Virus record (IMG/VR): IMGVR_UViG_3300047564_005519
Coordinates: 1-55,773 of that record
Reading direction: 5' to 3' (one strand)
Source: a virus
Taxonomy: Duplodnaviria > Caudoviricetes
DNA length: 55,773 nucleotides
Made by a program: the position numbers and the translations under genes
In this document: positions 2,257 to 43,435 of the stretch, one piece after another
How the letters are laid out: every line of letters starts with the position of its first letter
How positions within the stretch are numbered: the stretch's first letter is position 1
The notes under the pieces: model-generated
Told to the model about the DNA's origin: nothing
Databases searched by the model: none
The model's input: the letters and a program-made list of their open reading frames with translations, nothing else

Positions 2257-5200
2257 ATGCCAGCAAATAATGATACTACTCTCTATATTCTAAGTATGCT
2301 CTATACATATAATGCTTTTGGCGTTGAAGATGAGCAGTATATTAAACAAGTAATAGATATACTTGAGTTGAAAAATAACTATTTCTTCGATGTAGAAGCC
2401 GATAATGCTGGACTTAGAGCTAGAAGGAAAAGCTTTTTACAGGGAACCTATAGCCCACCATCTGAGGCGTCAGCTACCGCCGCTCCTGCGCTGTCAGAGA
2501 ATGGTTCTAAAATATTCTTTACAACGACAATGGAAGCCCCTAAAACTGATGAGTTTGCTAGATTTGCACTTAGTACAGTTATAACTAAATGGCTAGGATT
2601 AAGCACTCTTTTTAGTGAAGCAAATTTAGCTGAACTTGAAGATAAAACTGGTACAACTGGATCAGGATGGAATATAGATCAAGCCTTCCAAAACTTTATA
2701 TTTCAAGAATACTATTTATTAGATGAAAATATTGATTTATTTAGTTTATTATGTGTTAATAGATTAAAAATTTGGTTAGGAATTTGGCAACAAAATGGCA
2801 CGGTAAGTCCTGATCTAGCATTTGTAGAAGAATCAAAAACTATTAGTGAATTTACAGTAATAGAAGGAGAAGATGAACAATCTGATCCTACAGGTTCCAC
2901 TAATACTACAACCGCTAATAATCTTTCCTTTGATGGTTCTAATAATCTTATTTTTATATGGGATAAAGTATTTAGCACTCAAGTAACAGGTTATGAAGCT
3001 GGATTTGATAATATTCACAAAGTTTCTTTTATTAATAGATCTCCATCTTCAGATCAAAAAAATTCATTCTATCGTGTTTTTTCTAAGATAAGTTCTGATA
3101 TTTTAGATGAAAATCAACCAACAAAAGCAATGTTGTCTTCTTTTGGCGGAATTGTAAATAGACTTATTTCTTTTGGATTTTTTGAACTAGCTTCATATGC
3201 GTATGAAATTTCAGAATTCGCTAAGAAAAGATCTGCCAATGTATCCTCTGTCCAAAAGTCCGCTTTTGAATTTATAGATCCAGCAGTCGATCAAGTTTGG
3301 ATAGATAAACTTATTCAAGTTGAATATATAATAAGGAAAGATCCTGTTTTATTCTATAACATTATTAATTATTTCCCAAGTTTAGCAATATTCATATTAG
3401 ATGCACTCACTATAACATCAGACTACTCAAATGGTGGTTTAGGTGGTGGATCTGAAGATATCTTAAATGATCCTGAAGCATTCTTAGATTCTTTAGAAAA
3501 AGCTTTTGGAATGGAAAATGGTAAAGCAGTTTTTACATTAGCTAATCGTTTTACGAATACAGCTAAAAGGATTAAGGATGTCATTGAGAGTTCCCCATAT
3601 CGTGACAATACTCCTCCAGAAAATCCTGATATCTTTCATTTGCGTCTAGGTGCTGCTAACTTTTATGTTCCACCATTAACAATTGATATTAATTCTAGTT
3701 TTAAAGCTGGAAGTTTAATGGGAGCTGCATTACGTCAGAGGAGTAGCCCTAAGTTTAATTCTGGCTATAAAGAAACAACTATTAGAATGAAATTGTTTTT
3801 CCCTAATTATGAAGAGATATGGGGAATCACAATAGACGATGCTTCTAGTATAACTTTAAATGAAGATTTTAAAATTGATTTTAGAGCTAATGGCGATTCT
3901 GACGCAAAGATAGATAAGTTCTTGTCTTCTCTTCGTGGACTTGTAGCTGCTTTTAAGTATTCTCCATTCCTACCTATTAAGAATCACTACCTTAACAGTG
4001 TTCATGGGATTACGGCTGTTGGATTGTCATCAATGACAATTGCAACTATCCCGAATTTCCCATTTGCTCTTGCTGTTGATTTAGAGCTTGTAAACTTTAA
4101 TCATAAACCATTCTTGCCGATGATAACTGATTTTAATCAAGCAATTCATTGGGGTAAATATCGCCAATATATGGGTAAGGCAGCTGGGCATTTAAGTAAA
4201 TATGTTAGTGAAGAATTTTTGTTAAAAACAACCGATCTAAAAGAAACAGATGCTTTCCCATCTGAGGGAATACTAGACGGAAGTGCTATTGATCCAGATA
4301 ATCCTCCTGATTCTAATGATATTGTTATAACAGAAGCTGGTGAATATAGACCATTTCAGGCATTAGATAGCACTACACTAAAGGAGAGCTTGTTACTACC
4401 GGAACTTTTAGCTGCAGAAGCAGCTGGTGATGTATTGAAAACAAATATTCTTAGTGAATGGCGAAATGGTAATCACTTAACATTATTCTCTCCAGCTGAA
4501 GCACAAACTAAGATGTATTTGCCAAGCACTTCTTCTTTTAGAAATGAAGAAGAAAAGATTATGACTGATCTTGGTGAAAGTTTTTGGGATTCACTTTTAA
4601 AGAAGATTGGCATTGATGTTAATCAATCCGCATCATATGGAATTTCATTAGCAGAGACAGTAGATATTTCTAGGGAGAATGCGTACAATCCTTCTATTTT
4701 TAAAACTATTACAGATTTAAATCAAATATGGACTGCAGGTGCAAATCCAAATTCTCAACAAGATTCAATTTACGAATTTTTAACAACTACATTCATTCAA
4801 CAAAACTCTTCTACTTTTCCAAATACAGATGAAGGAAAAGCAGTTAAAGCATGGTTTAAGGATAGAAATAACCCGTACGACGCTGGCTATACGGAACAAC
4901 TTAGTTATATTTTCCAGGGTCAATATATCACAGCTTCCCTATACGCCGTTAAGAATGCTTTTGAGGAAACGGCTAATAATCCAAAGAGTATGCTAGATTT
5001 CTTGATTGATAATCATATAGCTAATATTGAAGGAACAACTGGTCAAGCACCAGACTACGATAAAGTGAAGCAAGAATTTTCTCGAGCTTTCAATGTTGTT
5101 ATGTATGAAAATTTCTTTAGGAGTGGCCCTGTACAAGCTTTGATGGAAGCTTCTAGACTTAAATCTGGACATATTCTTTTTAGAGAATGGGAAGTACCAA

Positions 5201-39734: not shown

Positions 39735-40442
39735 ATGTCTATCGAAGACATCAAAAAAGCAGTAGCCGATAAGTCTCTTCCAATGGAAGTCGCAGAAAAG
39801 TATTTAAAACTTTATGTTGCAGATATTGAGTGGCAACAGCATATCACTAGATTGTGGAATAATTCTTTAAACAAACTTAAAGACATAGATCACACTAAAC
39901 AGCATCTGAAAAATGCTATCGCATGCACTACTATATTACCCCTGGTGGAAAAAACGCCAATCCCTGATCCACCACAAAACCTATTATTTTGGTGTCCTGG
40001 ATGGCATCAATTTAAAGAACAGGATTGGTTTGAATCTCTTATGGAAATTATGAGAGAAGATATAATAATTTCCGAAAATAGAAATAAAATAATTAAAGTT
40101 GGAGTTATAGATCCCATTGATGTTAGTCCAGTTACTCGTCAAGCATACAATTGGCTTTACGATAAGGTTCTCGCAACTGAAAACATAGACTCTTTAAATA
40201 AAAAGGATTTAGAACTAAAACTAGCTAATCTAGTTCGAGCATATGGTGGATCTGTTATTTGCAGTATGTTTATGAACTATAAGCTTAATGTAGATAAAGT
40301 ATTAAATTGGCGAAGTGGTTATTTTTTTGAAAAGCAGATCTATAAGGTATATAATATAGATCAAATCTTAAAGATCAAAACCACTGAATTAAATAAAACA
40401 AATCAAAAGTATATTAAAAAAATTGGAGCTAATAATGGTTGA
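39735..40442 (+). CDS. hypothetical protein
   Basis: Likely start ATG 39735 (MSIEDIKK), because the ORF-track start lies inside the terminator. No motif recognised. Confidence 0.7.
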   Translation: MSIEDIKKAVADKSLPMEVAEKYLKLYVADIEWQQHITRLWNNSLNKLKDIDHTKQHLKNAIACTTILPLVEKTPIPDPPQNLLFWCPGWHQFKEQDWFESLMEIMREDIIISENRNKIIKVGVIDPIDVSPVTRQAYNWLYDKVLATENIDSLNKKDLELKLANLVRAYGGSVICSMFMNYKLNVDKVLNWRSGYFFEKQIYKVYNIDQILKIKTTELNKTNQKYIKKIGANNG

Positions 40443-42537
40443 ATCGATTCTTCTCAACAGTGATACAAATAATTCTAAGGTATCAACTTTTCTATTTAAA
40501 TTAAGTGAAGAATTTGTTGATTCATATAGAAGTAAACCCAGTCCATTTGGTTATCGGGACGCAGTTGGTAACTCTGTTGGAGAGATAACTTTTCTCAGAA
40601 CATATTCTAGAATAAAAGAAGATGGAACAAAAGAGACCTGGGTAGATGTCTGCGAGAGAGTTATTAATGGAATGTACTCTCTCCAAAAAGAGCACTGTAA
40701 AAAGAATAGATTACCATGGAACGATTTAAAGGCTCAGGCATCAGCTAAGGAAGCTTTCGATAGATTATTTAACCTTAAGTGGACACCTCCTGGGCGTGGT
40801 CTTTGGGTCATGGGAACTCCAATCGTAATGGTTCAAAAGAACTCAGCAGCTCTTCAGAACTGCGCGTTTGTTAGCACTGGAGAGATGACTAAGAATAATC
40901 CCGCAAAGCCCTTCGGCTTCCTCATGGAGGCCTCGATGCTGGGTGTCGGTGTAGGATTCGATGACAAAGGCGCTGATAAAGATTTTACTATCTACGAGCC
41001 AAATAGACCTACAATTGTTGAGAATATTGAAGACTCACGTGAAGGCTGGGTTAACTCAACGACACAGCTCATTAATTCATATTTAAAGCCAGATCAGAAT
41101 CCAATTGAATTTGACTATAGCTCGATCAGACCTGCTGGCACTCCTATTAAAACCTTTGGTGGCACTGCAGCTGGTGCTGATCCATTGATCAAGCTTCATA
41201 AGCATATTCGCAGAATGTTCGATGGCCGCAATGGAGAAAAGCTCACTAGAGTAGACATTGCTGACATTGGCAATACAATCGGCGTATGTGTAGTATCTGG
41301 CAATGTTCGTAGATCCGCAGAACTTCTTATCGGAAGAATTGATGATGACAATTTCTTAAATCTAAAGAATGCGGAGCGTTTTCCTGAGAGAAACTCTTAT
41401 GATTCTTCCGCTCCTGGGTGGGGATGGATGTCAAATAACTCAGTAGAAGTTTCGGTTGGTACCGATCTATCTTCTATTGTCGATGGCATTTCTAGAAACG
41501 GTGAACCAGGAGTTATCTGGATGGATATGTCACGTAAATATGGTCGCCTCGCAGATGCCCCAAACAATAAGGATTGGCGAGTCGCTGGGTATAATCCATG
41601 CGCTGAGCAGTCACTCGAGTCATACGAATGCTGCACGCTTGTGGAGACCTATCTCAATAGACATGATTCTTTAGATGATTTTAAGCGCACATTAAAGTTT
41701 GCTTATCTTTACGCTAAGACTGTCACATTACTTCCAACTCACTGGGAAGAGACTAATGCTATCATGCAAAGAAATAGAAGAATTGGAACTTCTGTTTCTG
41801 GTGTCGCTAACTTTGCAGACAGACTTGGTATGCCTACATTAAGAGAGTGGTTAAATGATGGCTATTTAACAGTTCAGCGTTATGACAATATTTATTCAGA
41901 ATGGCTTGGCATTAGAGAGTCTATTAAGACAACTACTGTAAAGCCTTCTGGTACGGTATCAATCCTTGCTGGAGAATCTCCTGGCGTTCACTGGACTCCT
42001 GGTGGCAAGTATTTTATGCGAGCTATCCGATTCTCAAATGATGATCCAATGCTACCATTATTTAGAATGGCAAACTATAGAGTAGAGCCAGCTTCAGAGT
42101 CACCAGATACCACGTCTGTAGTATTTTTCCCAATCAAGTCTGACGCTTCTAGATCTGAAAAAGATGTTACCATATTCGAGAAAATGTCTCTTGCTGCTGT
42201 GGCTCAAAGATATTGGTCAGACAATTCAGTTTCTGTTACAATTTCCTTTGATTCAGAAAAAGAAAAAGATCATGTTGGAACTGTTCTTCATATGTATGAT
42301 GGACAGCTAAAGACTGTTTCTTTCCTTCCACAAGGTAATTTCACATATCCCCAGATGCCATATACTCAGATTAGTGAGGAAGAATATACAGAAAGTTCTC
42401 TCAATCTGTTGCCAATTGATCTATCTGGTGTATACTCTGGTCTGGCAGCAGATGCGATAGGCGAAAACTACTGTACAACATCAGCATGTGAGGTCAAATT
42501 TATAATAGATAATCAAAAACCTCTCAATGAAAAGTAG
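40435..42537 (+). CDS. nrdJ: class II (adenosylcobalamin-dependent) ribonucleotide reductase, monomeric RTPR type
   Basis: TFLRTYSR, PPGRGLW, LQNCAF, VVSGNVRRSAE, NPCAEQ.L...ECCTLVE and TTVKPSGT, plus the C-terminal redox pair YCTTSAC. GGAG RBS before ATG 40435. Confidence 0.93.
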   Translation: MVESILLNSDTNNSKVSTFLFKLSEEFVDSYRSKPSPFGYRDAVGNSVGEITFLRTYSRIKEDGTKETWVDVCERVINGMYSLQKEHCKKNRLPWNDLKAQASAKEAFDRLFNLKWTPPGRGLWVMGTPIVMVQKNSAALQNCAFVSTGEMTKNNPAKPFGFLMEASMLGVGVGFDDKGADKDFTIYEPNRPTIVENIEDSREGWVNSTTQLINSYLKPDQNPIEFDYSSIRPAGTPIKTFGGTAAGADPLIKLHKHIRRMFDGRNGEKLTRVDIADIGNTIGVCVVSGNVRRSAELLIGRIDDDNFLNLKNAERFPERNSYDSSAPGWGWMSNNSVEVSVGTDLSSIVDGISRNGEPGVIWMDMSRKYGRLADAPNNKDWRVAGYNPCAEQSLESYECCTLVETYLNRHDSLDDFKRTLKFAYLYAKTVTLLPTHWEETNAIMQRNRRIGTSVSGVANFADRLGMPTLREWLNDGYLTVQRYDNIYSEWLGIRESIKTTTVKPSGTVSILAGESPGVHWTPGGKYFMRAIRFSNDDPMLPLFRMANYRVEPASESPDTTSVVFFPIKSDASRSEKDVTIFEKMSLAAVAQRYWSDNSVSVTISFDSEKEKDHVGTVLHMYDGQLKTVSFLPQGNFTYPQMPYTQISEEEYTESSLNLLPIDLSGVYSGLAADAIGENYCTTSACEVKFIIDNQKPLNEK

Positions 42538-43020
42538 TTTTTACTTTTTGTTGTGTTACTAAATTCATATGAAAAATAAAACAACAACCAGATTATGTCG
42601 TCAATGCAAAATAGATAAACCATTACAAGACTTCTATGAAGATAGTCGTGTCAAAAAAGATGGACGTCGATCCAAATGTAAAGAGTGCCTAACTAATGGT
42701 AAGCCACCTGGCCCAGTGCCAATGAATCCTCTTACTCGCTATGAGGTTGATCAAAAAGGATGCTGGATCTGGAAAGGCGCAGTACATGCTACTGGCTATG
42801 GACAAATTAAATGGAAAGGGCAGTCTACCGTTGCTCATCGTGTTGTCTATGAGTTAACTAAGGGAGCAATACCTAAGGGTCTCTATTTGGATCATTTATG
42901 TAGTGTTAAGCTTTGCGTTAATCCGGAACATCTTGAACCGGTGACTCAAAAAGTAAATATTCAACGAGCATGGAATCGCAACCACTGTGCCACATGTACC
43001 TGTTTTTTAGAGGAAAAATG
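42475..43020 (+). mobile_element. homing-endonuclease cassette inserted into the nrdJ 3' end, carrying a replacement RNR C-terminus
   Basis: ACAACA occurs at 42475-42480 and again at 43021-43026. The two copies begin TTSACEVKFI and TTDSCEVKFI respectively, with the HNH gene between them. Confidence 0.75.
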
Positions 43021-43021
43021 A
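42569..43021 (+). CDS. HNH homing endonuclease with N-terminal Zn-binding module
   Basis: CRQC...CKEC, then GCWIWKG...GYGQI...AHRVVYE...DHLC...CVNPEHLEPVT...N. Confidence 0.92.
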   Translation: MKNKTTTRLCRQCKIDKPLQDFYEDSRVKKDGRRSKCKECLTNGKPPGPVPMNPLTRYEVDQKGCWIWKGAVHATGYGQIKWKGQSTVAHRVVYELTKGAIPKGLYLDHLCSVKLCVNPEHLEPVTQKVNIQRAWNRNHCATCTCFLEEK

Positions 43022-43071
43022 CAACAGACAGCTGTGAAGTAAAGTTCATCAAGGAAAACGTTAAAGGATAA
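43018..43071 (+). pseudogene. displaced ancestral nrdJ C-terminal fragment / 17-aa mini-ORF MTTDSCEVKFIKENVKG
   Basis: Translated directly from the sequence. Its ATG overlaps the HNH stop (ATGA), AGAGGA lies just upstream, and TAA ends 1 nt before the ATG at 43073. Confidence 0.75.
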
Positions 43072-43072
43072 A

Positions 43073-43435
43073 ATGTCAGACGAAAATAATGACCACGATT
43101 TTGACAAAGTTTTTGAAGAAATTGTGAATTCAGATGATTTGAAGCAGATCAAGGAAAATTATGACACAGATGTTCGTCATGGTGTTAAAGAGTTGATATT
43201 AATTCAGCAATCTTTGGCTGACGTTTCTGGTCATATTTCTGAGATTCTTCTTCGTTCATTGTCCGAAAATACTATGGTTTTTGGTGACGATAATGTTTAT
43301 CATAATTTATTATCTTCGATTTATAAAATCTCTGAAGATTTTAACGAATATATGGTAGATTATTATATTGTGATCGATGACGATATGGACATAGATCTTT
43401 TTGATGAAGATGAAGATGGAGGCGAAGATGAGTGA
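43073..43435 (+). CDS. hypothetical very acidic protein
   Basis: 120 aa, Asp/Glu-rich, with the tail DDDMDIDLFDEDEDGGEDE. Confidence 0.7.
   Translation: MSDENNDHDFDKVFEEIVNSDDLKQIKENYDTDVRHGVKELILIQQSLADVSGHISEILLRSLSENTMVFGDDNVYHNLLSSIYKISEDFNEYMVDYYIVIDDDMDIDLFDEDEDGGEDE

Follow-up and report, generated by a model that had tools for sequence, protein, structure and literature searches.

Why should a phage ribonucleotide reductase gene appear to end twice, once on each side of an HNH endonuclease gene? The question is raised by nrdJ in the IMG/VR viral record IMGVR_UViG_3300047564_005519, a metagenome-derived record (~26% complete) whose whole 55,773-nucleotide (nt) stretch was analyzed and is called the window below. 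We interpret positions 42475–43020, with a probability of roughly 0.78, as a homing-endonuclease cassette, free-standing and situated within the final 16 codons of nrdJ. Such a cassette would comprise a substitute C-terminal tail with the redox C-x4-C motif, a short promoter-like spacer and an HNH_3 gene, while the resident tail would have been displaced downstream as an untranslated remnant.

Architecture of the nrdJ 3′ end

The open reading frame (ORF) ending at 42537 encodes a monomeric class II ribonucleotide reductase (RNR; Pfam PF17975, 4.2e-30, and PF21995, 1e-12), and its product matches the L. leichmannii RTPR (1L1L) at 7.6e-93. Monomeric NrdJ is re-reduced by thioredoxin or glutaredoxin by way of two C-terminal cysteines, which sit on a flexible tail (PMC5704485). 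In the window, the codon of the first tail cysteine (Cys1, TGT) lies at 42472–42474 and the gene ends ..GENYC/TTSACEVKFIIDNQKPLNEK before its stop, the tail occupying 42475–42537. This inserted C-terminus is in frame with the nrdJ core and keeps the C-x4-C motif (..YC/TTSAC..); the second copy of the gene end, beyond the HNH gene, retains only the second cysteine. The locus reads as follows.

40435–42474, + strand: nrdJ body through the first tail Cys codon (ORF, Pfam and 1L1L match)
42475–42537, + strand: proposed cassette-borne substitute tail, TTSACEVKFIIDNQKPLNEK and stop, in frame with nrdJ, C-x4-C retained
42475–42480, + strand: ACAACA, left copy of the 6-nt direct repeat bounding the insert
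42538–42568, + strand: spacer of 31 nt from the nrdJ stop to the HNH ATG, a degenerate copy of a promoter-like motif
42569–43021, + strand: free-standing HNH_3 endonuclease gene, 150 amino acids
43021–43071, + strand: proposed displaced native tail (remnant), TTDSCEVKFIKENVKG and stop, 51 nt, without the first Cys
43021–43026, + strand: ACAACA, right copy of the repeat
43073–43435, + strand: downstream gene, acidic protein of 120 amino acids
43401–44108, + strand: thyX (PF02511, 5.5e-31), context only, outside the cassette

The final base of the HNH stop codon TGA (43021) is also the first base of the remnant, and a single nt separates the remnant's stop from the next ATG at 43073. In-silico removal of 42475–43020 (546 nt) yields a continuous ..YC TTDSCEVKFIKENVKG with its stop. 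Copy against copy, the five codons that follow the second cysteine all differ at the wobble position (GAG/GAA, GTC/GTA, AAA/AAG, TTT/TTC and ATA/ATC). The first-pass annotation of this DNA had reported the two tail sequences, the 1-nt gap, the ACAACA repeats, the five wobble differences and the restored ORF, and all were confirmed base for base. Aligned locally to 50 native tails, the remnant scores 51, against a maximum of 25 among 30 shuffles, and its resemblance to native tails is beyond chance.

The HNH protein matches HNH_3 (PF13392) at 44.5 bits (cut-off 24.8; residues 89–130) and the PHROG family phrog_826, ‘HNH endonuclease’ (5e-33), and it combines a zinc ribbon (CxxC..CxxC) at its N-terminus, a predicted His-Me finger and an HCxTCxC motif at its C-terminus. 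Among 11 HNH homologues, 69 columns are invariant, including D108, H109, C111, C116, N118, H121, N130 and the HCxTCxC cysteines, to which we assign the catalytic roles that we take to be usual for this fold. Non-synonymous divergence (dN) is 0.11–0.26 and synonymous divergence (dS) is saturated; judged from these rates, the protein is under strong purifying selection. A PDB sequence search with the HNH profile returned no chain at E ≤ 0.01, and the AlphaFold2 model, built from only 11 sequences, is poor (mean predicted local distance difference test score 45).

Native tails, empty sites and carriers

We compared the window with two HNH-less sets, i.e., the best 80 of 592 IMG/VR nrdJ relatives found with the window query and the 80 best relatives of the nrdJ of locus L092, which represent a second nrdJ clade. 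Adding the isolate Actinomycetia phage DSL-LC01 to the best 80 gave 81 HNH-less loci for the tail comparison. This phage is the nearest isolate (nrdJ 78.5% identical at the protein level); its nrdJ has no HNH gene and ends TTDSCEIKFVKENVKKV before the stop. Overall, 78 of the 81 tails start TTD[SA]C, the exceptions being L004 (TTSAC..), L046 (STDSC..) and L060 (ETDAC..), and the tails of L067, L069 and L077 end TTDSCEIKFIKENVKG, one residue off the window remnant. A tblastn search for the HNH at E ≤ 1e-3 gave no match in the HNH-less loci (0/84), and the next ORF begins ≤150 nt past the nrdJ stop in 77 of the 80 HNH-less loci scored.

The body of the window's nrdJ is 94% identical at the protein level to those of the HNH-less L002, L003 and L004, its DNA is closest to them up to the Cys1 codon, and the downstream gene of the window aligns with that of L002–L005, where homologous starts follow nrdJ. 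Because the remnant is of the HNH-less tail type, the body is closest to L002–L004 up to Cys1 and the downstream gene aligns, we read the remnant as the resident native tail and the upstream tail as foreign from about codon 4 onward. Compared for a resident versus a donor-borne origin, the window remnant matches the native tail of L067 at 38/45 nt and those of L002 and L003 at 37/45 and 36/45 (i.e., 38/45 vs 36–37/45). Mean and maximum identity to native tails are 0.72 and 0.85 for the remnant, against 0.67 and 0.77 for the inserted tail. Close relatives with an empty site exist for the window, for L086 and for L153. The nearest HNH-less relative of L153 is L054, whose native tail matches the L153 remnant without a mismatch over the remnant's first 26 nt; downstream, the two loci are syntenic.

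The two tail copies of the window are 62% identical over 39 nt, which places them in the lowest 3.7% of 1176 native-tail pairs. Native alleles are polymorphic at the same five wobble positions, and a rough product of column frequencies puts the chance that two random native tails differ at all five at ~4%; by itself, the wobble pattern would be weak evidence. The tail described as “recoded” in the first-pass annotation thus does carry real wobble differences, but these lie within natural polymorphism.

Empty and occupied forms also occur in metagenomes. The window stretch was matched in freshwater metagenome runs of 16 studies, and four runs were compared with it, of which those coded X5, X7 and X9 gave the following results. 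In X9, from another study, one contig (depth 9.9) joins 42474 to 43021 and skips the 546 nt, with 72 letters on the shorter side of the joint and 5 letters that fit either side; the same run holds HNH-bearing contigs at a depth of ~3.8–4.6, contig depths not being allele frequencies. This contig is the predicted empty site, co-occurring with the occupied allele in one run. X5 provides a single 2385-nt contig spanning the HNH gene with 29 differences, and in X7 contigs bridge both junctions of the occupied allele (records 42427–42621 and 42640–43242). The expectation raised at first pass, that HNH-less relatives would have a TTDSC-type tail joined to the downstream gene, was therefore borne out both by the 78 of 81 loci and by the contig running from 42474 to 43021.

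The nuclease itself is found almost exclusively at this site. Twelve IMG/VR loci encode HNHs 67–78% identical to that of the window, a profile scan adds 5, and all 17/17 lie directly 3′ of nrdJ. In the metagenome scan, 23 of 25 HNH loci have an nrdJ tail directly upstream; one of the other two begins at a contig end and the other is a 45-residue partial match in another context. HNH genes of this family adjoin nrdJ on its 3′ side in 41 loci, and a scan of 185,579 prokaryote species, one genome each, found no relative. Carriers are rare among close nrdJ relatives: the nrdJ clade of the window has 2 among its 84 rows, and the best relatives of the L092 nrdJ have 2 among 80. The HNH family is strictly tied to the nrdJ site and sporadic among relatives.

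Displaced tails, proposed homing and its alternatives

Of the 42 loci scored, 9 (7 distinct sequences) show a stretch of native-type tail immediately 3′ of the HNH gene whose score exceeds the shuffles. Besides the window (51, shuffle maximum 25), these are L086 (54/27), L153 (62/32), L154 (36/25), L156 (68/28), L167–169 (49/23–27) and L172 (42/26). In the window, L086, L153 and L154, the remnant starts within 1–2 nt of the first base past the Cys1 codon. The remnants of L167–169 include the Cys1 codon, that of L156 starts at the Glu codon past the second cysteine (Cys2) and continues the HNH reading frame as a fusion (..EIKFIKDNQG, then stop), and that of L172 starts one to two codons later than in L156. 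Insertion between the two cysteines, as first proposed, therefore describes the junction common to four loci, but other junctions lie elsewhere. Where the remnants are long, in five loci, identity between the copies is 62–64%, in the lowest 4–7% of the 1176 native pairs (mean 76%), and the longest runs shared by the copies measure 6–9 nt.

The HNH proteins of L160, L161, L163, L165 and L176 share their last four residues with many native nrdJ tails. These ‘KDNQ’ ends (..CTC[NY]KDNQ, then stop) were considered as very short remnants and not counted, with scores of 25–27 against shuffle maxima of 25–33.

The tail type follows the nuclease across hosts. In the HNH tree (40 rows), the window, L156, L086 and L153 are one clade (support 98/88), and all four tails read TTS[SA]CE[IV]K.[IV][IV][ED]N. 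Their nrdJ genes fall in separate lineages whose nearest relatives are HNH-less, and their downstream genes differ (the acidic ORF, thyX and others). For a group chosen post hoc from the trees, the approximately unbiased (AU) test rejects the nrdJ genes of the window and L086 as one clade, with a log-likelihood difference of 54.5 and p = 0.01. In the tree of that analysis L196 has a long branch (0.93), probably because the wrong segment was extracted, and it was omitted from all tree-based claims. Because one HNH clade with TTS-type tails sits in different nrdJ lineages with different downstream genes, tail and HNH look to have spread horizontally as a unit.

A 13-residue consensus, TTD[SA]CE[IV][KR][FLM][IV]K[DE]N, fits 0 of 40 occupied tails (33 distinct) vs 67 of 79 HNH-less ones. 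The remnants, too, fit it over their retained parts; the two departures are the R of L154 and, in L086, the residue at the junction. Tails starting VTD are found in both HNH-bearing alleles of the second clade, and tails starting TTD in 77 of its 78 HNH-less alleles. The consistent differences between copies are amino acid changes, i.e., D4S and K12I/V in the window's cassette clade and T2V or T2S in others. Such a contrast between tail types is what immunity of the carrier allele would predict, and is at the same time confounded by phylogeny and sampling.

These patterns can be arranged into a homing cycle. Upon co-infection, the HNH would nick or cut the consensus tail DNA (..TAY TGY ACN ACN GAY..) near the boundary between Cys1 and the next codon, and recombinational repair with an occupied genome as template would copy the cassette in; the nrdJ body would provide homology on the left, and either the remnant or downstream DNA would do so on the right. 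Two features would make the occupied allele immune: its site is split, and its substitute tail is changed at key positions (D4S and K12I here; T2V/S in other lineages). Remnants would later be trimmed or lost. We infer the cleavage site, the immunity and the repair route from sequence comparison; the ‘recoding’ of the substitute tail is apt as a description, and its adaptive role is only putative.

A more ambitious version, to which we give rather less than even odds, holds that the displaced tail serves as a portable right-hand homology arm, letting the cassette invade any consensus nrdJ tail whatever lies downstream. If so, a free-standing homing endonuclease gene (HEG) would, like introns and inteins, come to be flanked left and right by conserved sequence, and a single freshwater phage gene pool would contain every stage of a natural homing cycle: empty consensus sites, occupied sites with an intact remnant, sites with a trimmed or fused remnant, occupied sites without a remnant, and HNH-less alleles with a cassette-type tail. 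This would amount to a DNA-level alternative to splicing, and one that may be common in phages.

A few HNH-less alleles do carry cassette-like tails. Those of L004 and L134 read TTSACEVKFIMENAK, that of L196 reads TTSSCEIKFIKENIKG (codons 4–5 cassette-like, then native-like wobbles), and L211 has a full cassette-type tail, VTDACEVKLILENNKETNN, its stop joined directly to native downstream DNA. The first-pass annotation had named a cassette tail in HNH-less relatives as an observation that would count against it; these few alleles are cassette-like, but none has the full IIDNQKPLNEK ending. Such tails may have been left behind when an HNH was lost, may mark resistant alleles, or may stem from donor lineages. 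Since the change of codon 4 from GAY to TCN needs at least two base changes, we would favor exchange over point mutation. Between L003 and L004, identity shows no clear dip at the tail (73–82%, vs ~85% overall, other windows being as low). Together with L134, L196 and L211, the allele L004/L133 makes up the set of HNH-less alleles whose tail is wholly or in part of cassette type. In the second nrdJ clade, L198, L209 and L211 have short tandem-like repeats (GGTATGGCTTCT-like units) 3′ of the nrdJ stop.

Several points weigh against the homing cassette. HNH cutting and tail resistance are both predictions from sequence, and the wobble differences between copies are within natural allele polymorphism. 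In 33 of the 42 occupied loci scored there is no remnant, and the HNH gene there looks like an ordinary intergenic free-standing HEG. Cassette-type tails occur in the few HNH-less alleles just described (L004/L134, L196 and L211), so that the variant tails could be ordinary donor-lineage alleles. A sliding identity comparison of the window nrdJ with 11 loci revealed no donor-like co-conversion tract upstream of the tail. The AU test used a group picked once the trees were seen, the loci behind the tail contrast were sampled as the 80 best nrdJ matches to two queries, and the X9 joint is one Logan contig, marked ‘between: not known’.

Some of these points would equally suit the strongest alternative, which we regard as unlikely: an ordinary intergenic HEG that may cut elsewhere in or near the gene, the tail duplication being a by-product of repair without right-hand homology. 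The upstream tail would then be a donor allele brought in by co-conversion, and neither recoding nor remnant would have a role. The loci without remnants, the naturally polymorphic wobbles and the HNH-less L211 with its full cassette-type tail all agree with this, as do the varying junctions, which include Cys1 in L167–169, follow Cys1 in the window, L086, L153 and L154, and follow Cys2 in L156 and L172. T4-type free-standing HEGs, moreover, are described as cutting away from the site at which they are inserted (PMC2988022). However, the same junction (to 1–2 nt) and a TTS-type tail recur in one HNH clade across different nrdJ lineages and downstream genes, and because this clade keeps both junction and tail type across nrdJ lineages, the composite structure itself appears to have spread. 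In addition, both boundaries of foreign DNA in the window fall within 6 nt in native coordinates, and the remnants are still consensus-like and open, fitting recent events.

Far less probable is a domesticated partner, i.e., an HNH that serves nrdJ or the phage in regulation or DNA processing and is passed on vertically, having been lost many times. Such a role is favored by the strict position of the HNH gene beside nrdJ in 41 loci, by long-term purifying selection on its protein and by the conservation of the promoter-like spacer. Against it, the HNH occurs in only 2/84 and 2/80 close nrdJ relatives, the nearest relatives of each occupied locus are empty, empty and occupied alleles are found together in one sample, the HNH and nrdJ trees disagree, and the family was not found in the cellular genomes scanned.

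The spacer motif in question, ..ACAACTAaT..TTGyGAtA.., is conserved in the spacers of L082–L093 and L145–L172, and near-perfect extended −10 forms resembling TGnTATAAT lie near the HNH ATG in L085, L153, L158 and L164. A sigma-70 consensus scan found no site in the window spacer, and the total number of sites was 4, vs a shuffle mean of 3.2. The motif suggests that the HNH may have its own promoter, perhaps with a leaderless mRNA. The ACAAC portion of the motif is similar to the ACAACA found where the cassette is inserted. The spacer might conceivably contain an autoregulatory operator; one is known for I-TevI.

The two remaining alternatives can be set aside with little hesitation. An intron would be in keeping with an upstream exon ending in T and an insert ending in G, as at group I splice sites, and phage RNR genes often hold introns or inteins (PMC3653736), but no Rfam family matches 42300–43250 on either strand at E ≤ 1, the insert has only ~94 nt beyond the HNH ORF, 63 of them a homologous coding tail copy ending in a stop, the fold of 42460–42580 is not unusual (z = −1.03), and the terminal-G rule fails in L153 and L154; an intein is contradicted by an HNH that is not in frame. 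The earlier description of the element as intron-less and intein-less, with the HNH as a separate ORF after a stop codon, accordingly stands. A chimera of two strain variants is suggested by the metagenomic, ~26% complete record and is just as hard to credit, with contigs of the independent runs X5 and X7 bridging both junctions and the same layout present in the unrelated contigs L086, L153 and L154 and in L167–169 from three records.

A few features of the surroundings complete the description. ATG 40435 (MVESILL..) is a likelier nrdJ start than the TTG 40423 given by the ORF finder, because relatives align from about residue 13–20. The remnant also forms a 17-codon mini-ORF, whose ATG (43018–43020) overlaps the HNH stop as ATGA and is preceded by GAGGA (region 43010–43071); it could relay translational coupling to the next gene. 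Since L086, L153 and L154 have no ATG at that position, we treat the mini-ORF as probably incidental. The downstream 120-amino acid protein has no Pfam or PHROG match; homologous starts (MS.EN.. / MSDE..) follow nrdJ in L002–L005 and the HNH gene in L089–L091 and L171, and the gene overlaps the listed TTG start of thyX. Elsewhere, the gene 3′ of the HNH varies by locus. In L083 it is an ORF at 3451–4026, which we take to resemble cob(I)alamin adenosyltransferase and which would fit a B12-dependent RNR, and in L084 an ORF at 3456–3683, presumably a small CxxC redoxin-like, NrdH-like protein.

Relation to known systems

Phage HEGs are clustered near RNR genes (PMC10448857), and several are borne there by group I introns or inteins, such as I-TevIII in nrdB and those in Twort nrdE and SPbeta bnrdE/F (PMC3653736). 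Like these, the element studied here targets conserved, critical RNR codons, would split the recognition site and is flanked by conserved coding sequence on both sides (PMC3653736). Unlike them, it has no splicing element, and rescue would occur at the DNA level by means of a spare tail.

T4-like phages harbor free-standing HEGs that undergo ‘intronless homing’, including SegF, SegG, MobA and MobE (PMC2988022). The window's HNH gene resembles them in being free-standing, in lying in or next to an essential gene, RNR genes included, and in its sporadic occurrence among relatives; their spread is presumed to proceed via break repair with co-conversion of flanking markers, and the HNH-type Mob enzymes nick one strand (PMC2988022). 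However, cleavage by the T4 enzymes typically occurs some way off from the genes that encode them, and no duplicated gene end is described for them (PMC2988022), while the boundaries here map to one target point, as with intron- and intein-borne enzymes, and a substitute end travels along.

A further phage case is mobE of Aeromonas phage Aeh1, which splits nrdA into two genes, or ‘genes in pieces’ (PMC3653736). Both are free-standing HNH-type HEGs in the coding sequence of a phage RNR without an intron or intein, and the Aeh1 enzyme is functional (PMC3653736). Aeh1 NrdA consists of two polypeptides that reassemble, with no duplication or replacement described (PMC3653736); here nrdJ remains undivided, as the cassette supplies it with a new end.

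Replacement of a gene tail by a HEG in a phage was not found in the literature searched, a search whose scope left out most subscription journals and paper supplements. For annotation, short duplicated gene ends beside phage HNH genes should not be dismissed as small ORFs or assembly errors, and the C-termini of phage RNRs can be mosaics that mislead marker-gene phylogenies. The locus is also usable as a study system: ~40 alleles in various states occur in nature, a single sample yields both empty and occupied forms, and the target spans 16 codons, one of them for a redox cysteine.

The nearest precedent lies in fungal mitochondria, where mORF ‘gene hybrids’ have been described in atp6 of Allomyces macrogynus, in atp6, atp9, cox2 and nad3 of Glomus sp., in atp9 of Rhizopus and in cox2 of Mortierella (PMC3630166). 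As in the window, a host core carries a foreign in-frame C-terminus, followed by an endonuclease ORF and, downstream, the native C-terminus; in both systems the native copy is nearer to the tails of relatives than the inserted copy is, and relatives have empty sites (PMC3630166). The two C-terminal copies of the fungal hybrids are only about 60–80% identical, which is alike here (PMC3630166). The differences lie in the setting, here a double-stranded DNA phage, an HNH_3 nuclease and nrdJ, vs LAGLIDADG or GIY-YIG nucleases in the fungal elements (PMC3630166), and in the build: the replaced piece is very short (16–20 codons) and holds a cysteine of the catalytic cycle, and the window's nuclease is a stop-separated ORF behind a promoter-like spacer rather than an in-frame fusion. 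Read as a homing cassette, the insert works like an mORF and stands outside the mORF element families because its nuclease is an HNH_3 in a viral record. It would thus represent a third way of rescuing an essential phage gene from a HEG inside it, i.e., neither an intron nor an intein but a spare gene end, a route documented for fungal mitochondria (PMC3630166).

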